Shown: piece after piece, positions 1,565-55,117 of the stretch
Layout: the number at the start of each line of letters is the position of its first letter
How positions within the stretch are numbered: position 1 is the first letter of the stretch
Assembly: GCA_903840435.1 (NCBI GenBank)
Contig: CAIMFV010000006.1
Location: forward strand, 22,415-86,414
Direction of reading: 5' to 3'
Origin: an uncultured Caulobacterales bacterium
Lineage (GTDB): Bacteria > Pseudomonadota > Alphaproteobacteria > Caulobacterales > Caulobacteraceae
Length of the DNA: 64,000 bases
Program-made: the position numbers and the translations under genes
Notes under the pieces: model-generated
The model's database searches: none
What the model saw: the letters and a program-made list of their open reading frames with translations, nothing else
Told to the model about the DNA's origin: nothing

Positions 1565-1973
1565 AGGCGCCACGGTCGCGGAGGGGCGGGTGGGCGAGAT
1601 TTTGCGCTATGGCCTAGTGGGGCTCGCCAACACGGCTCTTGGTCTCACCGTGATCTTGGCAGTGAAATTTCTCCTGCACGCGCCGCCGATCCTTGCCAAT
1701 GCCTGTGGTTATGGGGTCGGGATCGTGGTGAGTTTCCTGCTCAATCGCGGGTTTGTTTTTCGCTCTCAGGCGAAGGTCGGCGCCGCCGGTTTGCGCTACG
1801 GGCTTTCCGTCGCCCTCGCCTACGGGATCAATCTCTTCGTGCTGATCCTTGCCGAAAAGGGCCTTCCCTCAACGCCGCTCTTTCAAGCCTGCGATCAGCT
1901 GTTGGCCATGGGGGCCTATACGATCAGCCTCTATGTCTTGTCGCGCAGCTTCGTCTTCAAGGGCGTGACCTGA
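1530..1973 (+). CDS. GtrA family membrane protein (polysaccharide/glycan flippase-like small membrane protein)
   Basis: About 140 aa, 4 TM segments, RYGLVGLANTALGL motif typical of GtrA family; sits between GT2 and large membrane GT. Confidence 0.7.
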   Translation: MAPNIMPLPQPRGATVAEGRVGEILRYGLVGLANTALGLTVILAVKFLLHAPPILANACGYGVGIVVSFLLNRGFVFRSQAKVGAAGLRYGLSVALAYGINLFVLILAEKGLPSTPLFQACDQLLAMGAYTISLYVLSRSFVFKGVT

Positions 1974-3946
1974 TAGACGACCACGGGGGAATTCGGCTTG
2001 GACAGGCGGGTCAACCAGTTCGGGATATCTCCGCGGTCGAGGCGTCGTTGCAGGGCGGTGCTGGCAAGTCCTGTGCGGTCGGCATGGCCAGAATGGCCCG
2101 GGCACTCCAGCACATAGGTGACGCCATAGTTGGCGATCAAGGCGTGGGCCCGATCCTCTGGCGCCGTTAAGATGCTCCGCGCCGCCATAATGCCCCAGCC
2201 CAGACGATGATAGGGGGCCGACAGGGTCGAAGACGGCGTATAGGCGACCACAAACGGGCCAAGATCAATTTCGGAAACCGTCAACCCCTTGGGCGCCTTG
2301 GCCAATTCCGCATAGGGGAAGGCGTTGAAGCAATAGTCTGGCGGCGGAACGGGCTTGCGGGTTGATGAGGGGGCGGCGACTTTGCTCGCCCCCAACTTGC
2401 TGGCCCCCGGCTTGCTCTCCAGGGGGGCGGCGGTTTTGACGGCGGGGGCGCGCAAAGCTGTGACCGTGTCCCACACCCAGGCGCCCGCCGCGCTCCACGG
2501 CGTGGGCGTCAAGAGAATTGCTGCGGCAATCACGCCGACAAGGCCAAGGTCGGATGGGAAGCGCCGGGCGAGGCGCATGGACGCGACCCCGAGTATCGGC
2601 AAAGCAACCCAGATGCAGTAGGCGCTCATGCGAATGGCCGATGCGCCGATGCAGAGGCCGACGAGAAGCAAGCTGCTCGTCAAACGCCAGCCGAAGGCTT
2701 CGCGCCTTGGCTTTGATCCCAGGAGGACAGCCATGGCCAAGGCCGCCATCATGCCCGGCGCGATAAGGAACAGCGCGCCGGAGCCCTGGCGCGAGACGTA
2801 GAGGCCGATATTGGCGACCTCGCTGACATGATCGAGCCAGAAGCTGCGTATCCGCATATCGACATCGGCGAAGGGGCCGTGAATGCAGCTCGGGTGCAGT
2901 GCGAGATAGACAAAGAGCGCCGCCCCGCCGCTGAGCGCCAAGGCGAAAGCCCGGACGCCGAGCGACCGCCGCGCCGTGAGCTTGACGCTCAGCCACAACA
3001 GGCTGGCCCCTGTCGCTGTCCCCGCGACAAGATTGGCGCCGATGGCGTCGCAGGCCGACAGCGACAACCGTTCAGGCGGCGTTTGCAGGGCATAAGCGAT
3101 CAGGACAGAGGCTAACAAGGCCATCGCATATTGGCCGACAAACCGGTCTTCACGGGCGTCAGTCAAAAAGCGCAGGGCGATGAAACCGCCGATCAAGGCT
3201 TGGAACACCAAGGCCTCGAGCCCGATGGCGAGGCCTAGGCCTGCAGCGATGCCGCCAAGGATCGGGGCGTACCTGGCCTCGCGCCCTTGCAAGGCCGCCG
3301 CGAAGGCAATGACCGTCAGGGCGATCTGGACATTGTGATGGTCCACCCGTCCCGGATGGAATTGCTGATAAAGCGCGCCACCGAACAGGGCGATGATCGA
3401 TGTCGCCGCAACGGTGCTATTTTCAGCTGCCTCGCCCTCGCCGGCACTGAGCGCACGCGCAGCCCAAAGGCTCGCCCAAATGGCGATAAAGATCCAAATG
3501 CCGGGCCAGACTACCCGCGCTGCGAGTTCGGCCCGCTCCGGATCGACGACGGTCCGAAAGGCCAGCACTAATCCGGCAATCCCGCCATCGAGCAGCCGCG
3601 ACCAGTGAAAATAGGTCCCGACCGGCGGTTGGTAGCGTAGGAAATGCTGATCGAACCAGCCGCGTGCGTGCAACAATTCCCGAACAAAGACAATGCGCGT
3701 CGCATCATCGGTATCGCCCAGCGCGCCCTTTAGCCAGCCGCCGCCATCGAACAGGAAATAGGTGGTCAGGATGACCGCCGCCAAGGCGGCCATGAGCGCT
3801 GTGCGTCCAGGCGTCGCCAGGACAAGCGCTTTCGGCAGCCAAGAGCGACGAAGCCAGGGACCGAGCGCCTTCATGGCTGTGCCGCAGACGGCCTCGTCGG
3901 GCGCAGCGTGCAGCGCGCGGGGATCAAACCTTGAGCCTCTGAACAA
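1931..3946 (-). CDS. Large polytopic membrane protein, putative glycosyltransferase (ArnT/PMT GT39/GT83-like) with C-terminal periplasmic domain
   Basis: 671 aa, more than 10 predicted TM helices followed by soluble C-terminal region; context with GtrA/GtrB-like genes. Confidence 0.5.
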   Translation of the reverse strand: MFRGSRFDPRALHAAPDEAVCGTAMKALGPWLRRSWLPKALVLATPGRTALMAALAAVILTTYFLFDGGGWLKGALGDTDDATRIVFVRELLHARGWFDQHFLRYQPPVGTYFHWSRLLDGGIAGLVLAFRTVVDPERAELAARVVWPGIWIFIAIWASLWAARALSAGEGEAAENSTVAATSIIALFGGALYQQFHPGRVDHHNVQIALTVIAFAAALQGREARYAPILGGIAAGLGLAIGLEALVFQALIGGFIALRFLTDAREDRFVGQYAMALLASVLIAYALQTPPERLSLSACDAIGANLVAGTATGASLLWLSVKLTARRSLGVRAFALALSGGAALFVYLALHPSCIHGPFADVDMRIRSFWLDHVSEVANIGLYVSRQGSGALFLIAPGMMAALAMAVLLGSKPRREAFGWRLTSSLLLVGLCIGASAIRMSAYCIWVALPILGVASMRLARRFPSDLGLVGVIAAAILLTPTPWSAAGAWVWDTVTALRAPAVKTAAPLESKPGASKLGASKVAAPSSTRKPVPPPDYCFNAFPYAELAKAPKGLTVSEIDLGPFVVAYTPSSTLSAPYHRLGWGIMAARSILTAPEDRAHALIANYGVTYVLECPGHSGHADRTGLASTALQRRLDRGDIPNWLTRLSKPNSPVVVYQVTPLKTKLRDKT

Positions 3947-26600: not shown

Positions 26601-27041
26601 GTGAGCGAGATCAACCTAACCCTCATCTATGACGGCCTCGGTCCGGTATTTTGGACCGGCGGACCAGAGCTTTTTGGGGTGCAGGATCGGGACGAGGCGC
26701 TACGCCCCGGTCGCGCTGGTGCCGATGGCACGCTCATTTTTGACCTAAGCTTGCGAGTCACAGGCGCGCCGCCAAAGCCGCCGGTTTTGAGCGGCGAGGT
26801 TGCCCATGGCCCGCCCGGCGAGCGGTTTCTTTATCTCAGCTGGCGTAATCGTGAGGGCAACTACGCGCAAAGGCTAAAGCTGCCGCTTTCCACCATCGGC
26901 TGGGACCTCATCGCCGCCGCCCAGGCCGAAAACCGCCCGCTTGTCGCCACGCTGGAGGACAAGGCCCCCAAAGCGACCAAGACCGGCGCCAATATTGGCG
27001 GAACCCGTCCGGTGACGTGGCGACTGGCCGCAAAGTCCTAG
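26601..27041 (+). CDS. Hypothetical protein
   Basis: 146-aa ORF with native-like GC and codon usage; no motif recognised. Confidence 0.4.
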   Translation: MSEINLTLIYDGLGPVFWTGGPELFGVQDRDEALRPGRAGADGTLIFDLSLRVTGAPPKPPVLSGEVAHGPPGERFLYLSWRNREGNYAQRLKLPLSTIGWDLIAAAQAENRPLVATLEDKAPKATKTGANIGGTRPVTWRLAAKS

Positions 27042-27051
27042 CCTCAGGCCG

Positions 27052-27456
27052 TCAGGCGCAAACCGACGCCGCCGCCAAGGCGTGAACCCGCCCAACCATG
27101 TCCTGCCAAGCCCGCTCTATCTCGGGAACGAACAGCGGGCCGAGCACTTCCCGCACCGCCGCCTGTACCGCATCGGCAAACAGCGGAAACACGTCGGGCG
27201 CAACGCCCAAGCCATCATGATTGACCGCCAAGGATCGGATCAGGGCCGAGCCGTAATAGTCCCCCCCCGCCATATCCAAAATCGCCTCAAAGAACTGCGC
27301 CAACATCTCACCCCGCACCGACCCGTCCGTGTCATTACAAAAAAACGCCTGCAGGTGCGGATGCTGGGCAAACAACACTCCATAGACCGCCCCCGTCAAA
27401 TCACCCCCCCGCTCGGCGGCGATCTCTAGGCTGGCGGTGATGGGGTTGGGGGTCAT
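27052..27456 (-). CDS. Globin-family protein (truncated-haemoglobin / group 2-like)
   Basis: About 135 aa, helical globin-like pattern (AVYGVLFAQHPHLQAFF...); last native-GC gene before AT-rich island. Confidence 0.5.
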   Translation of the reverse strand: MTPNPITASLEIAAERGGDLTGAVYGVLFAQHPHLQAFFCNDTDGSVRGEMLAQFFEAILDMAGGDYYGSALIRSLAVNHDGLGVAPDVFPLFADAVQAAVREVLGPLFVPEIERAWQDMVGRVHALAAASVCA

Positions 27457-27737
27457 GGGGGCGGGGGGGCGCTCAGGGTCCGAGAGTGGGCGACCGTTGC
27501 TATAGCGCAAATTGAGGGCTTAGGTCATGCCTCGAGCATGACCTAAGCCGACACCGGATGAATTCAAAACGTAGCTAAGTTTCGAAAATATGTTGTCGCC
27601 AGCTTTTATTACATTGAGGAATTATTTGTTGATTAATCAATATAAAATTACATCAGGAGAATATTTATATACGATAAATAAACACAAATAATATTTCCGG
27701 TACGTCTGGTATAGATTATTATTTACAAATACGTGTT

Positions 27738-28982
27738 TCAGATTTGACTGGGAATATCATATACCATCACAGTTATAGTGATTTCCCGATCCATGTCACC
27801 TGGATTGCCAAAAATATATTGAAACCGCGTCGAGCCTTGTATAACTGGGCCTCGCTTTTTGTGAGTATGGGTATCCATCACTTCTCGTATTTTTGTTACG
27901 ACTCCAGAGAGGCCTTTATTTTTATTGAAAATAACTAGAGCGGACTTTGTATCGCGCCACGTCAAATAGCTAAGAAGTTGATCTACTGCATCCAAGAAGC
28001 TTGTTTGACCCCGCCATATTTTGCATTCAGCGATAAATATATTGCGGCCTTCGGAGCGAACCAGAATGTCCGTTTTGCCATGAGCATTGAAGGTCTCACC
28101 AGTGGCCTGCCCCTCGTATTGACCGTTCAGTTGCACGAGGAAGTGTTCGCGGATGTCCTCTTCGTCCATTTTGGCAAAAGTTTGCGGGCTGCGCTCCATG
28201 ACCTTCGTCATATTGTCCATGACTGAAAGGATATGCTGGTAGTTCGACTCGTCTAGCGCTGGCTCTGGCACCCAAGCGGCGAGTCGCGAAGCCGACTGCG
28301 ACGGCGAGATTTTTCGGTTCACATCTTCAGCCTTATAGACTTTTGGTGCGTCGGCTCGAAGCCTCATCGGAAACCCGAGGGTGGCAACAAGGTTCTTGTT
28401 GTGCAAAATTTCCGCGCGGCGACGGGGAATGTAAGAGCGTGCAATGGACTCCATCTCAACCTTTGCGGTTGAAAGGTCGCGCTCCAGAGTGGAGAGGTGC
28501 TGCCCGATGCTAGTTATCTCGCTTTCCAGCTCTACTTTGAGCTGGTCGCCCGACCTGTCGGAGGTCAGCATTGGCAGCATCAGTTCATGAGCCTCCAGAA
28601 TAGCTTTCGGTCCCGGTAGCGTTCGACTTGAAGGCCCGATCTGAAAATACTTGTAGTTCCCATCGAAGGGGATATGAAACACAACAACGTGTTTTTTGAT
28701 AATTTGGCGAGAGTTAGACCCGAAGTTGGAATAAATGTAACGGCCATGTTCGTTGATTACGCACTCGATTTCCGTTTCGTCTGTATATATTTCTTCGATG
28801 CGCAGGGTGGGTACTTTAAATGAACACCTTGCTATTGCATCCTCAATCAGAGACTCATCGGACTGATTTAAGATTTCGTCGTCTTTCAATCGCTTGAGCT
28901 CGGCGGTCGTTTGCTCAATAATCTCCCTAGCGACTTCGTATGAAAATTTCCCGCTGAATAGAGCAATGATTTTATCGATCAT
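27738..28982 (-). CDS. Horizontally acquired 414-aa protein with C-terminal PD-(D/E)xK-like nuclease motif; candidate single-gene anti-phage defence (Shedu-like) or abortive-infection nuclease
   Basis: Gene is about 40% GC against about 65% background, with AT-rich flanks on both sides; C-terminal GKTDILV...NIFIAECKIW fits the D...(D/E)xK restriction-endonuclease fold; size and architecture resemble DUF4263/Shedu; lies next to a VapBC TA pair. Confidence 0.55.
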   Translation of the reverse strand: MIDKIIALFSGKFSYEVAREIIEQTTAELKRLKDDEILNQSDESLIEDAIARCSFKVPTLRIEEIYTDETEIECVINEHGRYIYSNFGSNSRQIIKKHVVVFHIPFDGNYKYFQIGPSSRTLPGPKAILEAHELMLPMLTSDRSGDQLKVELESEITSIGQHLSTLERDLSTAKVEMESIARSYIPRRRAEILHNKNLVATLGFPMRLRADAPKVYKAEDVNRKISPSQSASRLAAWVPEPALDESNYQHILSVMDNMTKVMERSPQTFAKMDEEDIREHFLVQLNGQYEGQATGETFNAHGKTDILVRSEGRNIFIAECKIWRGQTSFLDAVDQLLSYLTWRDTKSALVIFNKNKGLSGVVTKIREVMDTHTHKKRGPVIQGSTRFQYIFGNPGDMDREITITVMVYDIPSQI

Positions 28983-29271
28983 TCGTTAAGGCCTCAGGAT
29001 TTAAATAAAACTATAGACTAGGCGTCGAGGAATTGCCAATGAAAGATCAACGGGCGGGCGTAATCCGAATTTCCGTTATTAGAGCAACCCTGCCGTTGAA
29101 ATATCAAGTTGCACCGTTCCTTTGGGGCTGGCCAGAGGTGTTGGGGCTCCCAGACGGTGCGAAGACCATTTTGTCGCCTCGTCCCGCCTAAAACCAGAAT
29201 GCCATGGCCAAGAATAAGGCTGACGAACCCGCTCAGAGCCCTATAAACCCCTGAAACCCAAGCCTTGAAAT

Positions 29272-42380: not shown

Positions 42381-43325
42381 TCATGCCGATTGCGCAAACG
42401 CTTTCAACAACTGATGCGCGATGGCGACGGGAGGGGGGCAGAAGGCGCCTGCGAAGGTTCCGGCCATTAGCGACTTGGCCTCGTCTCGGGTGAACCAGCG
42501 CACGGCCTCGAGCTCGGTCTGGTCGGGATGGGCTTCGCCGTCCTCGATCTCGGCAATCAGCCCGATCATCAGCGAGTTTGGAAAGGGCCAGGGTTGAGAC
42601 GAATGGTAACGGACAGCCTTGGTGACGAGGCCTGCCTCTTCTTTCAACTCGCGGGCGCAGGCCTCTTCGATAGACTCGCCGGGCTCTAAAAAGCCTGCCA
42701 AGGCTGACCACATGCCCGTTGGCCAAACGGCTTGGCGGCCGACCAAACACTTGTCTCCGACCACGGGCAGCATGATGACGACCGGGTCGGTGCGTGGGAA
42801 ATGTTCAACCTGACAGGCCGGGCAGACCCGTTTCCAGCCGCCGTCAGCCACCTCGCTCGGTTGACCACAGGCGGCGCAAAACCGGTGGCGGCGACGCCAT
42901 TCAAACACGCCCTTAGCTGTGGCGGCAATGCCCGCCTCCTGGCCTGAGAGCACGGCGCCCAGCCCGCGCAATTCGCGAAAGACGCCAAAGCCGTTTAACG
43001 GGCCCTGGCTGGGATCGGCGGCGCCGTCCAAATCAATGGCGAAGACCGGCGTCTCCTTCCACAACCCAAGAAACAACAGGCGCTCAAGGCCACCCGCCAA
43101 CTCCTGGCCAAGGCCTGGGGCAATATAGGCCAGCCGGGGCGCTTGGGGCGGGCTCCCGGCAACGGTCTCTTCGACCAATATCTGACCATTCCACAGCGGT
43201 AGGGCCAAGGCGTCGGGATGGGCGAGCAGCTTGGCGACAACAGAAGGGTCGCTGCGTAATTCACTGGCGCGGTTCAAGGGATTGCCAGCGAACACATTGA
43301 TCAGGGACATGGTGAGACGCTCCAC
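42381..43325 (-). CDS. nudC: NAD(+) diphosphatase
   Basis: CxxC...CxxC zinc ribbon followed by Nudix box GFLEPGESIEEACARELKEEAG. Confidence 0.85.
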   Translation of the reverse strand: MERLTMSLINVFAGNPLNRASELRSDPSVVAKLLAHPDALALPLWNGQILVEETVAGSPPQAPRLAYIAPGLGQELAGGLERLLFLGLWKETPVFAIDLDGAADPSQGPLNGFGVFRELRGLGAVLSGQEAGIAATAKGVFEWRRRHRFCAACGQPSEVADGGWKRVCPACQVEHFPRTDPVVIMLPVVGDKCLVGRQAVWPTGMWSALAGFLEPGESIEEACARELKEEAGLVTKAVRYHSSQPWPFPNSLMIGLIAEIEDGEAHPDQTELEAVRWFTRDEAKSLMAGTFAGAFCPPPVAIAHQLLKAFAQSA

Positions 43326-43406: not shown

Positions 43407-44417
43407 TCAGCCCTTGGGGCGTCGCTTGTGTGGCTCACCCCGTTCGCGCGCTTCGGAGAGCAAAGGCTGATTGTCGAAAGTATAGCGCAGCAAGGTCGCC
43501 TGTTCGATATTGACCAGGATTCGACAGGCTGTGGCCGCTTCCTCCGGCGTTGGCGTCGGCCCAAAGGCGGCGGCAAGTTTCGGTGTATAGTTGTCGCATT
43601 GAGCACGCCGGTAGCGCACGAAGGCGGGCCCGCTCTGACGGAATTCGCGTTCTGCAATATCGACAAGGTTTTGGGCTTCATCCCAGTCGTCGAGCACCCG
43701 CCTTACCCGGCGTTTGGCGCTGGCGAGCCGCGCAAGACTAAGCTGCTCCTGGCGCTGCAAACGAGCTGATCGATCCTCGCTCGTGCCAACCCTCCGCCAG
43801 ATATCCACCAAACGATAGGGGCCGCGCGGGTCGTCGCGCCCTGACTTCACACGCATGGGAGCCATGCCGACGGTTTCACGCAGCATCGAGCGCCTGCGCA
43901 GGTCCATCCAAAATTGACAGGCCCAGACCGATCGCTCGATATGCCATCGGTTTCCGACAGCCGAATAACTCAGCCGGTCACAATTGGCGTTGCGAAGTCT
44001 CTCATAGGCTCGGCTGGCCCACATATCGGAACGCGCCAGGGCGTTGCGGGCCGGTAGGCTTGATGGCTGCGATTGGGCCAAGGACAAGATGGCGCGATTG
44101 ACGCGATCCAAATTTGGCGAAAAGTGCTGCTGAATCTCAAACAGGCATTTATCGATCCCAACCTCTGACAAAATTGGGCAACCCTTGACGTCCTCTAAAA
44201 TATCATAAGACTCTTTGTATAGAAATGGAGATTCCTTCATCAGATTTAGGCGTAATTCTTGACCATACAGTTTTGAAATTGGGAAAAAGGCGGCAAAAAT
44301 CGACAATAAAGCAAAGGTAATATTTGATTTATTTCTGATATGAGGCTGTAAAATTCTTGCATTGATCTGATTATATCCGAATATAATTCGTTCGATTGCC
44401 AGCTGTGTCGCCTTCAT
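43407..44417 (-). CDS. Family A paralog 0: secreted double Cys-pair DUF1311/LprI-like protein (candidate immunity/lysozyme-inhibitor-like)
   Basis: Start placed at MKATQ (ATG 44417); hydrophobic N-terminal anchor; C-terminal half about 80-90% identical to other A copies (AFVRYRRAQCDNYTPKLAAA..ACRILVNIEQATLLRY). Confidence 0.7.
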   Translation of the reverse strand: MKATQLAIERIIFGYNQINARILQPHIRNKSNITFALLSIFAAFFPISKLYGQELRLNLMKESPFLYKESYDILEDVKGCPILSEVGIDKCLFEIQQHFSPNLDRVNRAILSLAQSQPSSLPARNALARSDMWASRAYERLRNANCDRLSYSAVGNRWHIERSVWACQFWMDLRRRSMLRETVGMAPMRVKSGRDDPRGPYRLVDIWRRVGTSEDRSARLQRQEQLSLARLASAKRRVRRVLDDWDEAQNLVDIAEREFRQSGPAFVRYRRAQCDNYTPKLAAAFGPTPTPEEAATACRILVNIEQATLLRYTFDNQPLLSEARERGEPHKRRPKG

Positions 44418-44554: not shown

Positions 44555-45484
44555 TCATCGCCTGTCGCCTCGGCTGTGACCCGGACCGCGATGGGATTGC
44601 GACATCAAGGTATGGTTGTCGAAAAAGAAGCGTAACAAGGTCGCCTCCTCGACATTGAGGAGGGTGCGGCACGCAATCGCCGCCGCCTCGGGGCTTGGCC
44701 CAAAGGCAAGGGCGGCGGCAAGTTTTGGCGTATAGTCCTCGCATTGCGCCTTACGGTAATGAAGAAAGGCTGGGCCACTACGATGAAAATCGCGCGCCGC
44801 CTTATCTACAAAATCTTGGTACTCGTCCCAGTCGTCCAGCACGCGTTGAACGCGAAGCTTGGCGCGCTGCAAACGTTGGAGGCTCAAAACTTCTTGGAAT
44901 CTCAAATTTTCCAATTGGTCCGGACCCGTTCCAACTGTGTACCACAGGTCCGCTAGGCGATAAGGACCGCGCGGCCGGTTGCGCCCAGGCCTGATCGGCA
45001 GCGGCGCATCCCCAACCGCTTCACGCAGGAGCGAGCGCCGGCGCAGGTCCAACCAAAATTGACACGCCCAGATGGATCGGGACGCGCGCCAGCGACTTCC
45101 GACGGCGGAATAACTCAGACGGTTACACGTGTCGTAACGGAAGTTTCGGTAGGCCTGGCCTGCCTTTTGTGCAGCGGACGATAAGGCGAGCTGGAGGGAA
45201 GCATCGCTTTGCTTGCTCAACGCATTGGCGAGGGTCCGTCGTTCGACCTTGTCGCGCATGGGCGAAAAATGCTGCGCAAGTTTGAGCAGGCATTGATCAA
45301 TGCCAACCTCGGAAAACGCGGGGCATCCCTGTACATCCGCCAGAACATCACCCGGCTCCAGGTACAGAAAGCGAACGTCTTCGCGTGATGATAGATGGAA
45401 TTTGAATGTAGTCGCGTGACAAATTGGCGAAAAGGAAGAAAATATCCATAAAATTATGAGAGTTATGTACAGGTATTTTTTCAT
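44555..45484 (-). CDS. Family A paralog 1: secreted DUF1311/LprI-like protein
   Basis: Signal peptide MKKYLYITLIILWIFSSFSPICHA encoded by AT-rich DNA; 4-bp overlap with family B gene upstream. Confidence 0.75.
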   Translation of the reverse strand: MKKYLYITLIILWIFSSFSPICHATTFKFHLSSREDVRFLYLEPGDVLADVQGCPAFSEVGIDQCLLKLAQHFSPMRDKVERRTLANALSKQSDASLQLALSSAAQKAGQAYRNFRYDTCNRLSYSAVGSRWRASRSIWACQFWLDLRRRSLLREAVGDAPLPIRPGRNRPRGPYRLADLWYTVGTGPDQLENLRFQEVLSLQRLQRAKLRVQRVLDDWDEYQDFVDKAARDFHRSGPAFLHYRKAQCEDYTPKLAAALAFGPSPEAAAIACRTLLNVEEATLLRFFFDNHTLMSQSHRGPGHSRGDRR

Positions 45485-46245
45485 GGATACAATCGAATAT
45501 AATCAAGTATATATTGAATTTTTTCTGGATAATGTGTTAGTGTTTTTGTATTATATTTTTGTTGTAACAAATATTTATCTATATTTTTCCAGCTCAAAAT
45601 CACCCGTTCGACCCTCGCCTTTTGCACCTTCACCCTTTGGTGCGGGCGCAGAAGGGATGATCCATTCAGTCGGCGGAGGTGATCGGTGGTGCTGCCATAG
45701 ATTTTGGCGATTTTATCGAGCGTGTCGCCTTTGGCAGCCTCGACTTCAAATATTGGCGCGCCCGGTGCAATGACGGTGCGCATATCCGACTGCGAGGCTA
45801 TGGAAAGGACGTATCCTATGCCCGCGCGAATATTGTCCTGCGGATTGGAGGAGGCGCGGGCTGCTAAGCCGTTTTGCCATTGTGGGGGGATGATCACCGT
45901 ACCAGCGCCCTCGGGTTTGAGGAGGTCGCGCAAGCCCCCGTCGCCCGAATTACCGATATGCATGGGGCGGCTGTTCCACGTGACGTCTCCCGGGTCGTTT
46001 TCCGTCCACATCATCGCCTTCATCAGGGCGAAATCTGGCGAGCGATAGCCCGCGACGCCGCGCAGATTTCGGTCGTACTCGCCGATGGCGCTGCGAATGG
46101 CGCTCTCGTGATCGTGCCAATGCGGTCCTGGTACAAATGTGTCTGTACCGTCCATCCATCCGGACAGCCCGTCTGAAATATTAGACGGGCGTGCAGGGCG
46201 TTGCACTTTTAAGTTGGCGCGATGTTTCAGCGTTGTTTCGACCAT
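45481..46245 (-). CDS. Family B copy 2: SLT-type lytic transglycosylase-like domain + C-terminal LysM; no signal peptide (candidate peptidoglycan-degrading effector)
   Basis: LMKAMMWTENDPGD...RPMHIGNSGD...QDNIRAGIGYVL resembles SLT motifs (AIAWQESxFNP / GLMQI / ENIRAGxxYL); VEAAKGDTLDKIAKIYGSTTDHLRRLNGSS = LysM. Confidence 0.75.
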   Translation of the reverse strand: MVETTLKHRANLKVQRPARPSNISDGLSGWMDGTDTFVPGPHWHDHESAIRSAIGEYDRNLRGVAGYRSPDFALMKAMMWTENDPGDVTWNSRPMHIGNSGDGGLRDLLKPEGAGTVIIPPQWQNGLAARASSNPQDNIRAGIGYVLSIASQSDMRTVIAPGAPIFEVEAAKGDTLDKIAKIYGSTTDHLRRLNGSSLLRPHQRVKVQKARVERVILSWKNIDKYLLQQKYNTKTLTHYPEKIQYILDYIRLYP

Positions 46246-46332
46246 GGGAGCTCCAGATTTTACGGAGCGCGCGACGCAAATCTGCAGTCAAGCGCGGGAA
46301 ACCCTAACCGTTAGCCTGACTTGCGACGGTCT

Positions 46333-46354
46333 CGCGACGTGACACGTCGTCGCG
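46333..46354. repeat. Conserved palindrome CGCGACGTGACACGTCGTCGCG (stem CGCGACG/CGTCGCG) 3' of family A gene, 5' of family B gene
   Basis: Near-identical copies at 47445-47466 and 48814-48835; related palindromes at about 50122-50134 and 51950-51962. Confidence 0.6.
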
Positions 46355-46363
46355 CATGTAGGT

Positions 46364-47284
46364 CTACCGGCGGCTGCGCGTGTCGCCGGGCTTGCGGTCT
46401 TGCGACATCAAGGGTTGGTCCTGGAAGTCGTAGCGCAGCAAGGTCGCCTCTTCGATATTGACCAAGATACGACAGGCCATGGCGGCCTCGTCCGGCATTG
46501 GCGTCGGTCCAAAGGCGGCGGCGAGTTTCGGGGTATAGTCGTCGCATTGAGCATGGCGGTAGCGCATAAAGGCGGGCCCGCTCTGACGGAAGTCGCGTTC
46601 TGCAATGTCGACAAGGTGTTGGGCTTCATCCCAGTCGTCCAGCACCCGTCTTACCCGGCGTTTGGCGCTGGCGAGCCGCGCAAGACTAAGCTGCTCCTGG
46701 CGCTGCAAACGGGCCAGTCGATCCTCACCCGTCCCGACCCTCCGCCAAATATCTACCAAGCGATAGGGGCCATGTGGTCCGAAACGCTTCGCCTTCACCC
46801 GCAGGGGGGCCTCGCCCACAGTTTCTCGAAGCAAGGATCGGCGATGCAGGTCCATCCAGAATTGGCAGGCTAAAATCTCTCGGATCGTATGCATCCGATT
46901 TCCGACGGCCGAATGACCCAAGCGATTGCAATTGATAAATCGAAGCCTGTCATAGGTCATCGCGGCACGGTGATCTGAGCGGGAAAGGGCGGCGTGATCG
47001 GCCGGACTTAATCCTCGTATTTGCGCCTTTGACAGCACCGCCCTCTCGGTATGCTTGAGGCTGAGAGAAAAGTGCTGCTGAATTTCGGCCAGACATGCAT
47101 CAATCCCAGTTCCAGAGAAGCTAGGGCAATCACGGACATCGTCAAGCACGTCAAAAGATTCTACATAAAGAAAGGGAGATTCGGTTGCAGATTTTACACT
47201 GAAACTGGATGTCATTGCGCGCGACGAAGGGCAATAACAAAGGATAATACATAAAATAATTTGGATTTTTTGGTAAATGTTCAC
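46364..47284 (-). CDS. Family A paralog 2: secreted DUF1311/LprI-like protein
   Basis: Signal peptide MNIYQKIQIILCIILCYCPSSRA; conserved C-terminal half. Confidence 0.75.
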   Translation of the reverse strand: MNIYQKIQIILCIILCYCPSSRAMTSSFSVKSATESPFLYVESFDVLDDVRDCPSFSGTGIDACLAEIQQHFSLSLKHTERAVLSKAQIRGLSPADHAALSRSDHRAAMTYDRLRFINCNRLGHSAVGNRMHTIREILACQFWMDLHRRSLLRETVGEAPLRVKAKRFGPHGPYRLVDIWRRVGTGEDRLARLQRQEQLSLARLASAKRRVRRVLDDWDEAQHLVDIAERDFRQSGPAFMRYRHAQCDDYTPKLAAAFGPTPMPDEAAMACRILVNIEEATLLRYDFQDQPLMSQDRKPGDTRSRR

Positions 47285-47444
47285 GGACTAAATTTCACAA
47301 GCTTGCCAAGGTGTTTCTGGCCCATGTCAAGGTGTTTCTGGCCCATGTGTCGTTTTTCCCTCCATCCATGGGGCAATTCGGTTGAAATAATGTGAGGAGG
47401 GAACGAGGGAGTTTGCGAGCAGCAAACATGGTCGAGTTTGGTCT

Positions 47445-47466
47445 CGCCACGTGACACGTCGTCGCG
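47445..47466. repeat. Copy of conserved palindrome (CGCCACGTGACACGTCGTCGCG) downstream of family A paralog 3
   Basis: Sequence identity to 46333-46354 motif. Confidence 0.6.
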
Positions 47467-47475
47467 CAGCTTGGT

Positions 47476-48495
47476 TTAGCGCCGGTTGCGACTTTCACCG
47501 GGCTTGCGGTCTTGCGACATCAGGGGTTGGTGCGCGAAATCGTAGCGCAGCAGGGTCGCCTGTTCGATATTGACCAGGACGCGGCAGGCTGTGGCGGCTT
47601 CCTCCGGCGTTGGTGTCGGCCCAAGGGCGGCGGCGAGTTTCGGGGTATAGTCGTCGCATTGGGCGTGGCGGTAGCGCACGAAGGCCGGCCCGCTCTGACG
47701 GAAGTCGCGGTCGGCAATATCGACAAAATCTTGCCATTCCTCCCAATCGTCGAGCACGCGGCGGACCCGTCGCCGGGCGCTGGCCAATCGCCTCAGGCTG
47801 GCGGCTTCCTGGGATTTCAATTTCGATAATCGACCCGCTCCCGCGCCCGCGAGGCGCCAGATATCGGTCAAGCGATAGGGGCCGTGCGGACCGCCGTGGC
47901 CCGGCTTGATCCGCATCGGCGCCTCACCGGCCGTTTCTTGCAGCAGCGACCGCCGATGCAGGTCCATCCAAAATTGGCAGGCATAAACCCGCCTCAGCGT
48001 ATGCATCGTCGCGCCAGCCGCTGCGTGGCTCAGGCGATCACAATTGCTGTTCCGAAGCGCAAAATAGCTTGAAACGGCTTGCTTCTGAGACAGAAGGAGG
48101 GCGTCTTGCCCGCCAGTCCCGGTTGCACTTTGGGTGGCGCGACCCAGCACCTCTGAATCGACACGGATCAACCGTCCCGCAAGCCGTTGTTGGATTTCTT
48201 CAAAGCAAGCGTCATAATCGGTTTCAGAATATATTCCGCAACCCGTGACGTCGTTAATGACATCCCATGGTTCCCTATAGATAAATGGTGAATGGTAAAG
48301 GGCAGTCATATTTGGATGCCAGAGCTCTACATGCTTAGACAAAGAGATCGAATGGCAACACACTGAAATAATAATTATGGAAAAATATATTAGACTATGG
48401 ATATATTTTAATGTAATCGAGAATATATTGCAATTTTGCCGCGTAATCAACATCTGGATTCCCATTATAGTTTGATTGGAGGGAATTTTTATCAA
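47476..48495 (-). CDS. Family A paralog 3: secreted DUF1311/LprI-like protein (start uncertain; ORF overlaps remnant B gene by about 100 nt)
   Basis: Hydrophobic N-terminal region IYFSIIIISVCCHS; C-terminal half almost identical to paralog 4. Confidence 0.7.
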   Translation of the reverse strand: MIKIPSNQTIMGIQMLITRQNCNIFSITLKYIHSLIYFSIIIISVCCHSISLSKHVELWHPNMTALYHSPFIYREPWDVINDVTGCGIYSETDYDACFEEIQQRLAGRLIRVDSEVLGRATQSATGTGGQDALLLSQKQAVSSYFALRNSNCDRLSHAAAGATMHTLRRVYACQFWMDLHRRSLLQETAGEAPMRIKPGHGGPHGPYRLTDIWRLAGAGAGRLSKLKSQEAASLRRLASARRRVRRVLDDWEEWQDFVDIADRDFRQSGPAFVRYRHAQCDDYTPKLAAALGPTPTPEEAATACRVLVNIEQATLLRYDFAHQPLMSQDRKPGESRNRR

Positions 48496-48772
48496 TTGGT
48501 CTCCAGCCGAATATAACTCTCATAACTTTCGCCTTCTGCACTTTCACCTTTTGATGAGGGCGTAGAGCGGACGAGCCATTAAGTCGCCTTAAGTGATCGG
48601 TCGTGCTGCCATAGTGTCGGGCGATGGCGTCAAGTGCGTCACCTTTCGCCGCCTCGATCTCACAAATGCGCGTGCAGGGCGTTGCACTTTTAAGTTGGCG
48701 CGTCGTTTCAGCGTTGTTTCGACCAAGGGAGCTCCAGATTTTACGGAGCGCGCGACGCAAATCTGTAGTCAA
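48395..48772 (-). pseudogene. 5'-truncated family B remnant retaining only the LysM/C-terminal part
   Basis: EAAKGDALDAIARHYGSTTDHLRRLNGSS...QYILDYIKIYP matches C-terminal 100 aa of intact B copies; SLT part missing; conserved B 5' leader still present at 48748-48797. Confidence 0.6.
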
Positions 48773-48813
48773 GCGCGGGAAACCCTAACCATTAGCCTAG
48801 CTTGCAATAGTCT

Positions 48814-48835
48814 CGCCACGTGACATTGCGTCGCG
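48814..48835. repeat. Copy of conserved palindrome (CGCCACGTGACATTGCGTCGCG) downstream of family A paralog 4
   Basis: Sequence similarity to 46333-46354 motif. Confidence 0.55.
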
Positions 48836-48844
48836 CTCCATCGA

Positions 48845-49762
48845 CTACCTCCGGTTGCGACTTTCACCGGGCTTGCGCTCTCGCGACATCAGGGGTTGAT
48901 CCTCGAAGTCGTAGCGCAGCAAGGTCGCCTGTTCGATATTGACCAGGATGCGACAGGCTGTGGCGGCTTCCTCCGGCGTTGGCGTCGGCCCAAGGGCGGC
49001 AGTGAGTTTCGGGGTATAGTCGTCGCATTGAGCGCGCCGGTAACGCACAAAGGCGGGCCCGCTCTGACGGAAGTCGCGGTCGGCAATATCGACAAAATCT
49101 TGCCATTCGTCCCAATCGTCGAGCACGCGGCGGACCCGTCGTCGGGCGCTGGCTAATCGCCTCAGGCTGGTGGCTTCCTGGGATTTCAATTTCGATAATC
49201 GATCCGCTCCCGCGCCCGCGAGGCGCCAGATGTCGGTCAAGCGATAGGGGCCGTGCGGACCGCCGCGGCCCGGCTTGATCTGCATGGGCGCCTTACCAGC
49301 CGTTTCTTGCAGCAGCGACCGCCGATGCAGGTCCATCCAAAATTGGCAGGCGTGAACCTGCCTCAGCCTATGCATGGTTCCGCCAGCCGCTGCGTGGCTC
49401 AGCCGATCACAATTGATCAATCTTAGCTGCTTATAGGCGCGGGCCGCCCGCCTTCCAGACAAGATGAGAGCCGTCGTTGCGGAAAGGTCGGTTAGCCGCG
49501 TCTGCGCCTTCGACAGTATCGCTTGATCAAGGCGGCCCAATTTCGGTTCAAAACGGTGTTGAATTGCAATGAAGCATCTGTCTATGCCAGCTTCAGAATA
49601 GGATGGGCAACCTTCAATATCATTTAATATATCGTAGTATTCTCTGTATAAAAAGGGCGACTCTCGCAAAAAATTGAGACGGAGCTCCGGATTATGGGCG
49701 TCAACTGGGGAAAAATGGGAAAATGATATAAATATAAATAGAATAAAAATTGCAAATTTCAT
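48845..49762 (-). CDS. Family A paralog 4: secreted DUF1311/LprI-like protein
   Basis: Signal peptide MKFAIFILFIFISFSHFSPVDA; C-terminal half near-identical to paralog 3. Confidence 0.75.
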   Translation of the reverse strand: MKFAIFILFIFISFSHFSPVDAHNPELRLNFLRESPFLYREYYDILNDIEGCPSYSEAGIDRCFIAIQHRFEPKLGRLDQAILSKAQTRLTDLSATTALILSGRRAARAYKQLRLINCDRLSHAAAGGTMHRLRQVHACQFWMDLHRRSLLQETAGKAPMQIKPGRGGPHGPYRLTDIWRLAGAGADRLSKLKSQEATSLRRLASARRRVRRVLDDWDEWQDFVDIADRDFRQSGPAFVRYRRAQCDDYTPKLTAALGPTPTPEEAATACRILVNIEQATLLRYDFEDQPLMSRERKPGESRNRR

Positions 49763-50167
49763 GGGTAAAATCCGAGATGTTCAAGTTAATATTTCCATAT
49801 TCATCTAGATGTGACGCTATGCGCCCTTAAGTGATGTCTGGGGTGGAGCGGGGACGTTCCATTGAATGCCCGGCGAGGGGCGGCGGTGCTGCCATGGGTT
49901 TGGCTGATCCCATCCGAGGTATCCCCGAGACCTCCCGCCCCAGTGCCTTTGGGCCTAGTGGTTAAGGGCGCGAGGGGCAATTGGTCGATACTTTTGCCAA
50001 GCGAGTCGGGGATCACGGGTAAAGATGCCGCCCCTCTTAGATCGCCAGCCGTGCTGAGGCCTTCCAACAGCTTGGGGGAAGATATCTGAACCTCCATGGA
50101 CCATCGTTCGTCCAGATGACATGACGTCGCGTCACTCAAATTCCGAAGGTCGTCGAGCGGGCGGAGG
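49763..50167 (-). pseudogene. Highly decayed family B remnant (no intact reading frame)
   Basis: Nucleotide similarity to B LysM region (ggtgctgccatgggtttggctga vs ggtgctgccatagattttggcga of intact copy) but frameshifted; occupies the position where a B gene precedes each A gene. Confidence 0.4.
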
Positions 50168-51145
50168 TTATCCGTTTTGACGTCGTGAGTGTCCCTCGCC
50201 GCGCTTGCGCGCCTCAGAAAGCAGGGGTTGTCCGTCAAACGTGTAGCGCAGCAGGGTCGCCTCTTCGATATTGACCAGGATGCGACACGCCATGGCCGCT
50301 TCCCTCGGCGTCGGCCCCCTGCCAAGAGCGGCGGCAAGTTTTGGTGTGTAGTCGTCGCATTGGGCCTGACGGTAGCGCGCCAGGGCGGGCCAGCTTTGCC
50401 GGACGTCCTTCTCTGTGAGTTCAAAATATTTTTGCATCTCATCCCAGTCGTCCAGCACCCGCCTCACCCGCCGTTTGGCGCGCGCGAGCCGCGCGAGGCT
50501 GAGCCGTTCTTGAGCCTGTAAACGGGTCAATCGGTCGTCGCCCGAACCGGCGCGCCGCCAAATGTCCGCCAAGCGGTAGGGGCCGTGCGGGCCGTTACGC
50601 CTGGGCTTTACCCGCATGGGGGGCTCGCCATCCGTTTCTCGCAGCAGAGACCGTCGATGTAGGTCCATCCAAAATTGGCAGGCCCAAACCCCGCGCAGGG
50701 TATGCATTCTGCCGCCGTTTGATGAGCGTTGGAGATGATCACAATTTATCTGGCGTAGGTGAAGATAGGCCAGGGAGGCGCTTTGTTTTGCCTTTGACAG
50801 GATGTCTAGGGATGCTTTTTCGCCTGCCTCAGAGGCGGCGTTAGCGAAAACCTCTGCATCGACCTGGTTCAACTTGTCGGAAAGATGTTGGACAATCTCC
50901 TCAAAACAGGCATCGAGATCGCCTTCAGAATAAATTCCACATCCCGGTACATCATCAATTACGTCGTCCGGCTCTTGATAGAGAAATTTCGATTCATCTA
51001 ATAATTTAAAATCAGGGTGCCACAAGGCAATATGTTTCGCCCAAGCTGGACTCTGATACATAAATAAAAAACAAAGACAAAACAAAACGCCGATTTTAAG
51101 GGTATATTTTAATGTAATCAAGTATATATTGAACTTTTTCTTCAT
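50168..51145 (-). CDS. Family A paralog 5: secreted DUF1311/LprI-like protein; start overlaps 3' end of family B copy 1 by about 50 nt in another frame
   Basis: Signal peptide KIGVLFCLCFLFMYQSPAWA; conserved C-terminal half. Confidence 0.75.
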   Translation of the reverse strand: MKKKFNIYLITLKYTLKIGVLFCLCFLFMYQSPAWAKHIALWHPDFKLLDESKFLYQEPDDVIDDVPGCGIYSEGDLDACFEEIVQHLSDKLNQVDAEVFANAASEAGEKASLDILSKAKQSASLAYLHLRQINCDHLQRSSNGGRMHTLRGVWACQFWMDLHRRSLLRETDGEPPMRVKPRRNGPHGPYRLADIWRRAGSGDDRLTRLQAQERLSLARLARAKRRVRRVLDDWDEMQKYFELTEKDVRQSWPALARYRQAQCDDYTPKLAAALGRGPTPREAAMACRILVNIEEATLLRYTFDGQPLLSEARKRGEGHSRRQNG

Positions 51146-51860
51146 AGTGCGCTCCTGCTTTTCGATTGTATTTATCTTTCAAGAGTTTTTTATCAATTGT
51201 GTCCCAGCCGAATATCACTCTCATAACTTTCGCCTTCTGCACTTTCACCTTTTGATGAGGGCGTAGAGCGGACGATCCATTTAGTCGCCTTAAGTGATCT
51301 GTCGTGCTGCCATAGTGTCGGGCGATGGCGTCAAGTGTGTCACCTTTCGCGGCCTCGATCTCAAATATGGGTGCACCTGGCTCCACAACCGTCCTGAGGT
51401 CCGACTGCGAGGCCACGACAAGGACATAGCCAATCGCTGCGCGAATGTTATCCTGCGGGTTCGAAGTGGCACTCGCGGATAACCGTTCCTGCCACTGAGC
51501 TGGGACGATGATCTTTCCCGCTCCGTTTGGCCTGAGAACGTCGCGCAAGCCGGGATCACCGGAATTACCAATTTGCATGGGCCGTCTGTTCCAACTCGGA
51601 TCGCCGGGGTCGTTTTCCGCCCAAATTATGGCTTTCATCAACGAAAAGTCGGGGGAGCGATATCCCGCGACGCCGCGCAGATTTCGATCATAGTCTTTGA
51701 TGGTCGTCCGAATCTCACTTTCATAATCCCGCCAGTGCGGTCCGGGAACGTTTCTATCAACGCCGTCCATCCACTTCGCCAAACCCGGCGGAACATTGGC
51801 CGAGCGCACGGGTCGTTGCACCTTGGGTTTTGCAGGATGTTTAACCGCTGTTTCGGCCAT
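51096..51860 (-). CDS. Family B copy 1: SLT-type lytic transglycosylase-like + LysM protein, no signal peptide; first gene of the array
   Basis: Start placed at MAETAVKHPAKPKVQRP (ATG 51860) matching start of copy 2; ORF-track extension to 52214 would overlap SRP RNA and is rejected. Confidence 0.75.
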   Translation of the reverse strand: MAETAVKHPAKPKVQRPVRSANVPPGLAKWMDGVDRNVPGPHWRDYESEIRTTIKDYDRNLRGVAGYRSPDFSLMKAIIWAENDPGDPSWNRRPMQIGNSGDPGLRDVLRPNGAGKIIVPAQWQERLSASATSNPQDNIRAAIGYVLVVASQSDLRTVVEPGAPIFEIEAAKGDTLDAIARHYGSTTDHLRRLNGSSALRPHQKVKVQKAKVMRVIFGWDTIDKKLLKDKYNRKAGAHYEEKVQYILDYIKIYP

Positions 51861-52038
51861 TGGGGCTCCAGAGCTCATGGAGCGCGCGGCGCAATTTTGC
51901 GACCCCGCGCACGAAACCCTAATTTCTAGCCTCCCTCGCATCGCCCTTGCCATGTGACATGGCGTCGCGGCGCGGTGGTGATGGCGCGGGATGCGAGCGC
52001 TTACGGCCCTTGCTAAGCGCAGGCTTGCGCGCGATATA

Positions 52039-54365: not shown

Positions 54366-54968
54366 ATGGCCGCCGCCGCCGGGCCTGAGATTGAGCGCTT
54401 GATTCAGCTCTTGTCGAAATTGCCGGGTCTGGGTCCTCGGTCGGGTCGACGGGCAGCGCTGCAATTGTTGAAGCGCAAGGACCAGCTGATGCGGCCCTTG
54501 GCTGAGGCCCTGACCTTGGCGGCGGACCGGGTGCGCGCCTGTTCGACCTGCGGCGCGCTGGATACGTCAGACCCTTGCGCCATCTGCGCCGACGGCACCC
54601 GCGATGGGACCGTCCTGGTGGTCGTAGAAGATGTCGGCGGCCTCTGGGCGATGGAGCGCAGCGGCGCGCACCGCGGCCGTTATCACGTGCTCGGTGGCCT
54701 TTTATCGGCCTTGGACGGGGTCGGGCCCGACGACCTGCGCATTGAAGGGCTGTTGCAGCGCGCGGGCGGCCAGGACGTCGCCGAGGTGGTGCTGGCCCTT
54801 CCCGCAACGGTGGACGGTCAAACCACCTCCCACTATCTGGCCGAGCGATTAACGGGTTTAGGCGTCGCGGTGACCAGCCTCGCGCGCGGCGTGCCGGTCG
54901 GCGGTGATCTGGATTGGCTCGACGACGGCACCATCAACCAAGCCTTGCGCGCCAGAAGGCCTGCTTAA
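54366..54968 (+). CDS. recR: Recombination protein RecR
   Basis: HhH ([13 protein letters not shown]), Cys4 zinc finger (CSTCGA..CAIC), Toprim. Confidence 0.9.
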
Positions 54969-55117
54969 AAGAGAAGGCCTGCTTGAAGGAGGAGGCCTGC
55001 TTAAAAGAGGAGGCCTGCTTAAAAGAGGAGGCCTGCTTAAAAGAGGAGGCCTGCTTAAAAGAGGAGGCCTGCTTAAAAGAGAAGGCCTGCTTGAAGGAGG
55101 CGGGCTTGCCTAACTTC
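54956..55117. repeat. Tandem repeat, 18-bp unit AGGCCTGCTTAAAAGAGG (variant ..TTGAAGGAGG), about 9 copies
   Basis: Seen directly; fills whole convergent intergenic space; first unit contains recR stop codon, last unit overlaps stop of 55110-55991 gene. Confidence 0.85.

Follow-up and report, generated by a model that had tools for sequence, protein, structure and literature searches.

The window analysed here is a stretch of 64,000 nucleotides (64 kb) from an uncultured Caulobacterales bacterium (assembly GCA_903840435.1, contig CAIMFV010000006.1, positions 22,415 to 86,414). Between 43.4 and 52.0 kb its minus strand carries an array of about 9 kb, in which two gene types, B and A, recur in units of the order head motif, leader, B and A. 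B genes encode proteins with a lysozyme-like domain and a LysM domain, A genes their putative exported partners. Six A genes are intact, but only two B genes (B1 and B2); in addition, one deleted B copy (Btr), one ghost of a B gene and one remnant consisting of the head only were found. A five-step series is readable in the window: B is intact (B1, B2), its catalytic domain is deleted (Btr), it is reduced to a ghost, the head motif alone is left (between A3 and A4), or nothing is left (between A5 and A6).

Gene content and unit structure of the array

The array is flanked by dnaX-ybaB-recR (51991 onward) on one side and by a NUDIX gene (42381-43325) on the other. Its G+C content of 0.51-0.60 is below that of the flanks (0.61-0.67). 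On the minus strand the order is B1, A1, ghost, A2, Btr, A3, a gap of 191 nucleotides (nt), A4, B2, A5 and A6. The features are listed below with the evidence for each; lengths of proteins are given in amino acids (aa).

51946..51968, minus strand: head motif copy 1, upstream of B1 at the array edge (pattern search)
51096..51860, minus strand: B1, intact putative effector gene, 254 aa; lytic transglycosylase-like (LT-like) domain with invariant E82, LysM and C-terminal tail, no predicted signal peptide
50168..51145, minus strand: A1, immunity-like, 325 aa, presumed cognate of B1 (six-A alignment; hydrophobic N-terminus, Kyte-Doolittle (KD) value 2.92; hhalign to LprI partners)
49763..50167, minus strand: ghost B unit, 405 nt, non-coding relic between A1 and A2 (protein- and motif-level traces)
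50108..50130, minus strand: head motif copy 2, within the ghost, with one mismatch or indel in its 3' part (pattern search)
49825..49926, minus strand: LysM trace in the ghost, 34 codons, 41% identical to the LysM of B1 (tblastx, Smith-Waterman)
48845..49762, minus strand: A2, orphan immunity-like, 305 aa (six-A alignment, omega, AlphaFold2 (AF2) model)
48812..48834, minus strand: head motif copy 3, upstream of the deleted B (pattern search)
48395..48844, minus strand: Btr, B pseudogene with a frame-shifting internal deletion of 433 nt (blastn to B1 and B2, intact ortholog in contig L002, Pfam LysM)
47476..48453, minus strand: A3, immunity-like, 325 aa, cognate of the deleted B (six-A alignment, omega against the L002 ortholog)
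47285..47475, minus strand: head-only remnant, 191 nt, in the gap between A3 and A4 (blastn, alignment of post-A-stop regions, motif, Tandem Repeats Finder (TRF))
47443..47465, minus strand: head motif in the head-only remnant (pattern search)
46364..47284, minus strand: A4, orphan immunity-like, 306 aa (six-A alignment, hydropathy)
46331..46353, minus strand: head motif copy 5, upstream of B2 (pattern search)
45481..46245, minus strand: B2, intact putative effector gene, 254 aa, 71% identical to B1 (blastn, Pfam, alignment)
44555..45484, minus strand: A5, immunity-like, 309 aa, presumed cognate of B2 (six-A alignment)
43407..44417, minus strand: A6, orphan immunity-like, 336 aa from MKATQ (six-A alignment, post-A-stop alignment, hydropathy)

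An earlier sequence-only reading of this DNA had described B genes as preceding A genes in a fixed register. This order was found for B1-A1, ghost-A2, Btr-A3 and B2-A5. The overlap of B stop and A start is not constant and amounts to 50 nt for B1/A1, about 59 nt for Btr/A3 and 4 nt (ATGA) for B2/A5. A1 and A3 start 50-59 nt inside the 3' end of B, which thus also encodes the beginning of their signal peptides; at least this part of B is thereby protected. The same DNA at 51096-51145 and 48395-48453 codes in two frames for the B tail (..QYILDYIKIYP) and for the N-terminus of the next A (MKKKFNIYLITLKY.. and ..NIFSITLKYIH.., respectively).

The window contains exactly five copies of the head motif (GCGACGNNRTGTCAYNTGG, 14-23 nt, with a CACGTG-like core). 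Each of them heads a unit on the minus strand; the number expected by chance is 0.00-0.04. The motif directly follows an A stop or, in the case of B1, lies at the array edge, and is located about 95-110 nt ahead of each B start. It was also detected at equivalent places in four related contigs (L001, L002, L092 and L093). It may act as a promoter or operator, or as a site of recombination.

Successive loss of B genes

The region 48395-48845 was aligned with B1 and B2 on the nucleotide level, and strong matches were obtained with blastn. Its first 170 nt or so correspond to the B2 leader plus the initial codons, with 91.6% identity across 167 nt (E 1e-66), and about 275 nt at its end correspond to the B1 LysM half, with 85% identity across 274 nt (E 1e-85). 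Compared to the intact ortholog at L002:295-1059 (P0002, 254 aa), Btr shows a single gap of 433 nt. This length is not divisible by three, so the native frame is shifted and ends after 45 codons. Codons 20-164, approximately, are gone, including the invariant catalytic Glu82 and the whole catalytic domain, while the leader, codons 1-19 (48670-48726) and the LysM part with the tail (48395-48673) are kept. The deletion junction lies at about 48670-48675 within the imperfect direct repeat GCGCCCATATTT. The native start of Btr is a TTG at 48726, as in the L002 ortholog, and its product is now out of frame and 45 aa long. The open reading frame (ORF) of 125 aa at 48395-48772, in which LysM was found by Pfam, begins at a fortuitous TTG of the leader in another frame. 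The loss of the catalytic half and the retention of the LysM half and leader had been recognized correctly in the sequence-only reading. However, the copy is not N-terminally truncated; the alignment with L002 identifies an internal, frame-shifting deletion. For the LysM part of Btr, omega against the intact ortholog is 0.21.

For the ghost at 49763-50167, nucleotide alignment with B1 and B2 gave no blastn match (best E 0.25). Global nucleotide alignment with the Btr unit under softer scoring was marginal (z 1.8; 18 of 400 shuffles reached the score), and a broad hidden Markov model (HMM) of the B family was not significant (E 0.69). These results would be expected if the likeness to B were a chance or low-complexity match in a plain spacer. 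In contrast, tblastx aligns the 34 ghost codons at 49825-49926 (GDTSDGISQTHGSTAAPRRAFNGTSPLHP) with the LysM of B (GDTLDAIARHYGSTTDHLRRLNGSSALRP) in each of the three B copies (E about 2e-4); strand and order are correct, and the position is the homologous one. The Smith-Waterman score of this trace is 69, 6 standard deviations (sd) above the shuffle mean of 38.9 (sd 4.9). No score as high was obtained with 2000 dinucleotide shuffles (maximum 62) or with 1500 real 405-nt segments taken from the window (maximum 52). Independently of this trace, the 14-nt form of the head motif (GCGACGNNRTGTCA, 50117-50130) is present at the expected place in the ghost, and its distance to the LysM trace fits a deleted B copy. 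A chance match is therefore very improbable, and the trace of B is real.

From the head motif to the 'GD' of LysM, the ghost measures about 191 nt, compared with about 178 nt for Btr and about 611 nt for B1. Since this spacing is like that of Btr and unlike that of an intact B, the ghost most likely passed through a Btr-like deleted stage, as judged from the coordinates, and was then blurred by point mutations. Compared to its counterpart in L001 (90% identical) it contains an indel of 2 nt. In the frame of the LysM trace omega was 0.72, which does not differ from the other two frames (0.70 and 1.29). This frame is open across the ghost in the window, yet it is not conserved as a frame. The ghost is a non-coding and neutrally evolving sequence. 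Thus, the claim of a B relic in this interval holds for the LysM codons and the head motif, but the traces are found at the level of protein and motif and not, as had been proposed, of nucleotides. Likewise, the term 'frame-destroyed' does not apply to the open trace frame of the window itself, although it describes the lack of conservation.

Between A3 and A4 the head motif and about 45 nt of leader are followed by no B sequence; a match of 29 nt to the B2 leader (96.6%) was detected with blastn. In this gap a perfect tandem repeat of two 21-nt copies (CAAGGTGTTTCTGGCCCATGT) is located at 47307-47348, directly upstream of the A4 start (TRF). At the A5-A6 junction neither the head motif nor a trace of B was found upstream of A6 in the alignment of the post-A-stop regions.

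Purifying selection was seen for the two A genes tested and neutral evolution for the ghost. Omega was 0.27 for A2 against the L001 ortholog and 0.42 for A3 against the L002 ortholog, compared with 0.72 for the ghost; this contrast is based on small counts and on two A genes.

Furthermore, the same locus was compared in related strains, as the sequence-only reading had suggested, and additional independent B losses and a strain-variable gene content were identified. Over the segment A1-ghost-A2-Btr-A3-gap-A4, L092 and L093 match the window with 98.5% identity and share the ghost and the Btr deletion. At the B1 position they carry an in-frame LysM-only ORF of 112 aa with a divergent leader and a junction unlike that of Btr. 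In L092 another A replaces B2, and no B2 follows A4. L001 and L002 are about 90% identical to the window (flanks of L002, 92-94%), and their version of the locus contains an extra A gene. In L001 the ghost and A2 are present and the B1 ortholog is cut to its last 170 nt or so. In L002 the Btr ortholog is intact, an A4/A6 hybrid is found and B2-A5 is missing. Effector loss with retention of immunity genes is thus recurrent in the family, and these sequences suggest that the array was reshaped by recombination between units.

Two further observations were made in these contigs. In the alignment of 51382-51934 with L092:9638-9764 and with L093, the leader and 5' half of B1 are swapped for a highly divergent leader allele, joined in frame to the LysM half (the 112-aa ORF); the change is an allelic replacement or a sharply bordered gene-conversion tract. 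The ORF of 232 aa called at L001:7039-7737 is a chimera in which an A1 fragment, devoid of both its signal peptide and its C-terminal module, reads into the ghost in a frame unlike that of the LysM trace; it is likely an annotation artefact of decay.

Protein families of B and A

The LysM domain (PF01476) was identified in B1 (E 6e-6), B2 (3e-5) and Btr (1.5e-4), in all cases above the gathering score. The N-terminal domain of B is lysozyme/SLT-like with the conserved Glu; neither Pfam nor NCBIfam names this catalytic domain. With the maximum hydropathy of a 12-aa segment in the N-terminus as measure, values of 0.15-0.30 were obtained for B and of 2.4-3.1 for all six A. B is accordingly predicted to be made without and the downstream A with a signal peptide.

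A profile of the B family (first row B1) matched ECs_0214 (Etse4) of E. coli Sakai (hhalign 99.9%, E 2e-34), and the motif W-x-E-N-D is common to both. Etse4 blocks growth only when directed to the periplasm, and Etsi4 rescues the cells (PMC12981562). In E. coli O157 Sakai, hcp1 is followed by two etse4 fragments and etsi4; a nonsense mutation is reported to split the effector gene of enterohaemorrhagic E. coli (EHEC), with the immunity gene intact (PMC12981562). A B homolog was also found on a Salmonella fragment of a type VI secretion system (T6SS) in the order tssM, hcp, B homolog (tblastn E 5e-20), which fits the pair SED_RS06235/SED_RS06230 predicted for Salmonella pathogenicity island 19 (SPI-19) (PMC8867033). 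The array shares with Etse4/Etsi4 the effector layout, consisting of an LT-like domain with the W-x-E-N-D catalytic motif, LysM and tail, and the downstream periplasmic partner of LprI type. The systems differ in several points. The partner of Etse4 has about 146 aa and one LprI module, whereas A has about 300 aa and two modules below the Pfam threshold. Here, six repeated units are found in an alphaproteobacterial metagenome-assembled genome (MAG), outside and not adjacent to a T6SS cluster, and identity of B with the enterobacterial effectors is just about 25-32%.

The B family is large. It includes no fewer than 322 protein clusters, and 196 loci were found among species-representative genomes, predominantly of Burkholderiales, with some Enterobacterales and Acetobacteraceae; the patterns of the genome-collection scan were fitted to the E-[ST]-G variant, so the lineage of the window itself was not returned. 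Essentially no homologs were located on plasmids. In 50 of 77 loci with a full B, an LprI-like ORF lies directly downstream and usually overlaps the B stop. Among the remaining 27 loci, 26 have an ORF of about 130-190 aa starting at or near the B stop. Of these ORFs 24, plus that of L006, align as a second, unrelated Cys-rich family without Pfam match (about 140 aa, signal-like N-terminus, conserved Cys and Trp, consensus PFTGxFxGTGRACxGxLxVRxKTIEW). Examples are L019:10738-11160, L006:2250-2678 and ORFs of L032, L074, L084 and about 20 more loci. This candidate immunity family takes the place of the LprI gene after about a third of the B homologs. Besides the partner genes, no neighbour family occurred in more than 11 of 80 loci; hcp is located directly upstream of B in 4 of the 80.

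Two loci contain repeated genes of this kind. In an Azoarcus MAG (L043:9394-12379) the order is hcp, B, Lpr, a B LysM half (120 aa), Lpr and a B fragment (77 aa). In Burkholderia semiarida (L012:9995-12159) B is followed by three immunity-type genes, namely Lpr, a second-family gene and a partial Lpr. As a separate observation, a distant B-LprI pair in L003 lies beside a protein of 504 aa with a Peptidase_C2 match and an X-Tfe XVIPCD domain (killing effector of a Xanthomonas-type type IV secretion system, T4SS), with a 186-aa gene ahead (L003:2817-4893); effectors belonging to two distinct delivery systems may thus lie side by side there.

The six A proteins align over their full length and are 49-71% identical with A2. 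They belong to a very rare family: a word-indexed search gave 10 clusters, and among 1.84 billion proteins there were only 7 representatives at E<1e-30. Weaker matches of the A profile are proteins of about 146 aa, and all ten that were scanned carry PF07007 (LprI). These are 34-51% identical to the LprI genes following B in Burkholderia and Acetobacter. The LprI partner family in turn matched Etsi4 (hhalign 98.6%). Both halves of A were related to this partner family by hhalign, the C-terminal half (about 189-293) with 98.3% and E 1.5e-14 and the N-terminal half (about 49-162) with 96.4% and E 1.4e-9, all four Cys included. The Cys spacing of the N-terminal half (C52-x10-C63-x54-C118-x20-C139) resembles that of the LprI partners (C35-x9-C45-x54-C100-x21-C122), and the C-terminal half retains the last two Cys, C246 and C270. 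The AF2 model of A2 (predicted local distance difference test (pLDDT) 82.5) shows an N-terminal helix followed by two three-helix modules. Hence, profiles and model indicate that A is an exported tandem of two divergent LprI-like modules in the position of an immunity gene. Known LprI/DUF1311 proteins (PF07007; LprI of M. tuberculosis, ScwA of Salmonella) resemble A in the three-helix module with conserved Cys, in export and in the association with peptidoglycan-cleaving enzymes. A differs from them in its two tandem modules and in a divergence too great for the Pfam model to recognise. That an LprI domain on its own inhibits lysozyme is not demonstrated (PMC7933661).

Effector-immunity interpretation and alternative explanations

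We consider it likely that the region is an effector-immunity island in which B copies were lost and A copies were kept. This interpretation is built on the observed homologies and fold, on export signals read from hydropathy, on the anatomy of the deletion and the statistics of the ghost, and on the differences in constraint and between strains. The accumulation of orphan immunity genes proposed by the sequence-only reading agrees with six A genes as opposed to two intact B genes and remnants, with the contrast in omega and with the B losses in sister genomes. Its toxin-immunity interpretation is strengthened by the membership of B in the Etse4 family and by the LprI-like character of A in the immunity position.

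B would be a peptidoglycan-cleaving enzyme with a lytic-transglycosylase or lysozyme fold and a LysM anchor. It lacks a predicted signal peptide and would be harmless in the cytoplasm of the producer and toxic on reaching a periplasm. Delivery by a contact-dependent injector is presumed, by analogy most probably by a T6SS through Hcp. A would be exported to the periplasm, where its two LprI-like three-helix modules would bind and block the matching B. We infer the periplasmic toxicity of these B proteins, their neutralisation by A and the secretion route. Deletions and recombination between its repeated units would drive the evolution of the array. Losing a B copy would be cheap and may remove a risk of self-intoxication, whereas a cell that loses an A copy would be open to attack by kin still firing that B. 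Hence, B copies would erode and A copies would be kept under purifying selection.

Protection against kin effectors by retained immunity is the model for arrays of V. cholerae and Pantoea (PMC5361080, PMC9796082). In the T6SS auxiliary clusters of V. cholerae (Kirchberger et al. 2017, PMC5361080) and the hcp/vgrG islands of Pantoea agglomerans (PMC9796082), immunity genes also outnumber effectors and are kept after effector loss. Content is strain-variable in these arrays as well, with recombination as driver, and orphan immunity genes with LprI domain were described for Pantoea (PMC9796082). In contrast to the window, these arrays are located at the 3' end of T6SS clusters and consist of unrelated, horizontally acquired immunity families; here the genes are paralogs of one rare family, and the units are marked by the head motif and/or a B remnant, so that the stages of loss are directly readable. 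Orphan modules downstream of rhs and cdiA likewise result from recombination and line up partial effector genes, each with an immunity gene behind it. However, it is the toxic C-terminal domain that they keep; in the window's array, the toxic domain is N-terminal and is lost, and what stays is the non-toxic LysM half.

Several results weigh against an effector-immunity island. No secretion-system genes were found in the window, and the array does not lie within or at the end of a secretion cluster. Most B-partner pairs elsewhere are not adjacent to T6SS genes either. In the literature, no experimental T6SS-dependent export was found for any member of the B family, and secretion of Hcp1 by EHEC was not detected (PMC12981562). 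The six A proteins gave no match at E<=0.1 to Pfam, so that the threshold of PF07007 was not reached, and none to NCBIfam; with Foldseek only generic helical-bundle matches were obtained and nothing specific. In L001, A1 is fragmentary; immunity genes can decay as well, and their retention is not absolute. Moreover, all six A belong to one family, and tandem duplication without a role in antagonism is possible from the sequence alone.

The LysM-only copies might be kept for a function, with the 3' end of B providing a promoter, ribosome site and A start or with a role of a LysM-tail protein as dead decoy or partner of A. In the lineage the catalytic part was lost and LysM half and tail were kept at least twice independently with different junctions (Btr out of frame, L092/L093 in frame), and the same pattern occurs twice in the Azoarcus array. 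The starts of A1 and A3 inside the B 3' end and the low omega of the LysM part of Btr would agree with such a function. Promoter-like hexamers cluster in the AT-rich B tails (51121-51093 and 48450-48405), but the promoter and terminator scan gave matches at consensus level only. On the other hand, the LysM frame of Btr is severed from its native start, the ghost (omega 0.72, indel) illustrates neutral decay of such a remnant, and A2, A4 and A6 are intact without a usable B 3' end upstream. A low omega of Btr is also expected if the deletion is recent and most divergence accrued on functional genes. We regard a function of the remnants as unlikely, with a small but real chance; beyond the protected overlap, the surviving LysM half may be merely young or may be selected. 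A more far-reaching variant, which we consider doubtful, holds that removal of the catalytic domain is a recurrent, selected disarming, that the LysM-only product or DNA is needed for expression or function of A, and that A is a two-module fusion with dual specificity.

It appears quite improbable that B and A are a housekeeping wall-remodelling enzyme and its periplasmic regulator, tandemly amplified and without antagonism. Most B-partner pairs elsewhere do lie among ordinary metabolic genes, and ScwA, the LprI-domain protein of Salmonella, regulates the levels of the LysM lytic transglycosylase MltD without lysozyme inhibition (PMC7933661). However, B without signal peptide cannot reach its substrate via Sec, the G+C content of the island is atypical, and copy number and integrity differ between 98.5%-identical strains. 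Genes from three unrelated families occupy the partner position in different loci, which is expected for immunity genes; periplasmic toxicity and rescue by the partner are reported for one member of the family (PMC12981562), and linkage to hcp occurs in several lineages. An origin of the array as remnant lysis cassette of a prophage (endolysin and accessory gene) could be suspected from the lysozyme-like fold, the LysM domain and a weak Pfam match to Phage_tail_X (E 0.053). It was rejected as extremely improbable, since tblastn detected no B homolog in 50,697 phage records and the flanks contain no phage genes. The A proteins, with a cleavable-type signal segment and LprI-like domains, are also unlike the layout of holins or spanins.

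Outside the array, three further features of the window were recorded. Downstream of recR, an 18-nt tandem repeat of 8 copies (92% match) at 54957-55100 is open in several frames with repetitive 'GGLLKR' and 'KEACLKE' ORFs. A second patch of low G+C content (0.50-0.51 compared with about 0.62) at 27000-29000 contains an ORF of 414 aa (27738-28982, minus strand) without Pfam match, which may be another horizontally acquired gene. Finally, an ORF of 671 aa without Pfam match (1931-3946, minus strand) adjoins pgi and addAB-like genes.

In general, retention of immunity genes after effector loss is a known phenomenon. New are the rare double-LprI immunity protein of this lineage and the unusually complete decay series. 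Current ideas are not overturned by the effector-immunity interpretation; its value lies in annotating genes so far unnamed (B1, B2 and the six A) and in providing a natural case in which the retention of immunity genes can be studied cleanly. With it, the Etse4/LprI effector-immunity family reaches into a freshwater lineage of Alphaproteobacteria. The array offers an unusually legible record of how an effector-immunity locus ages, within a single 9-kb stretch and with the same events under way in sister genomes.

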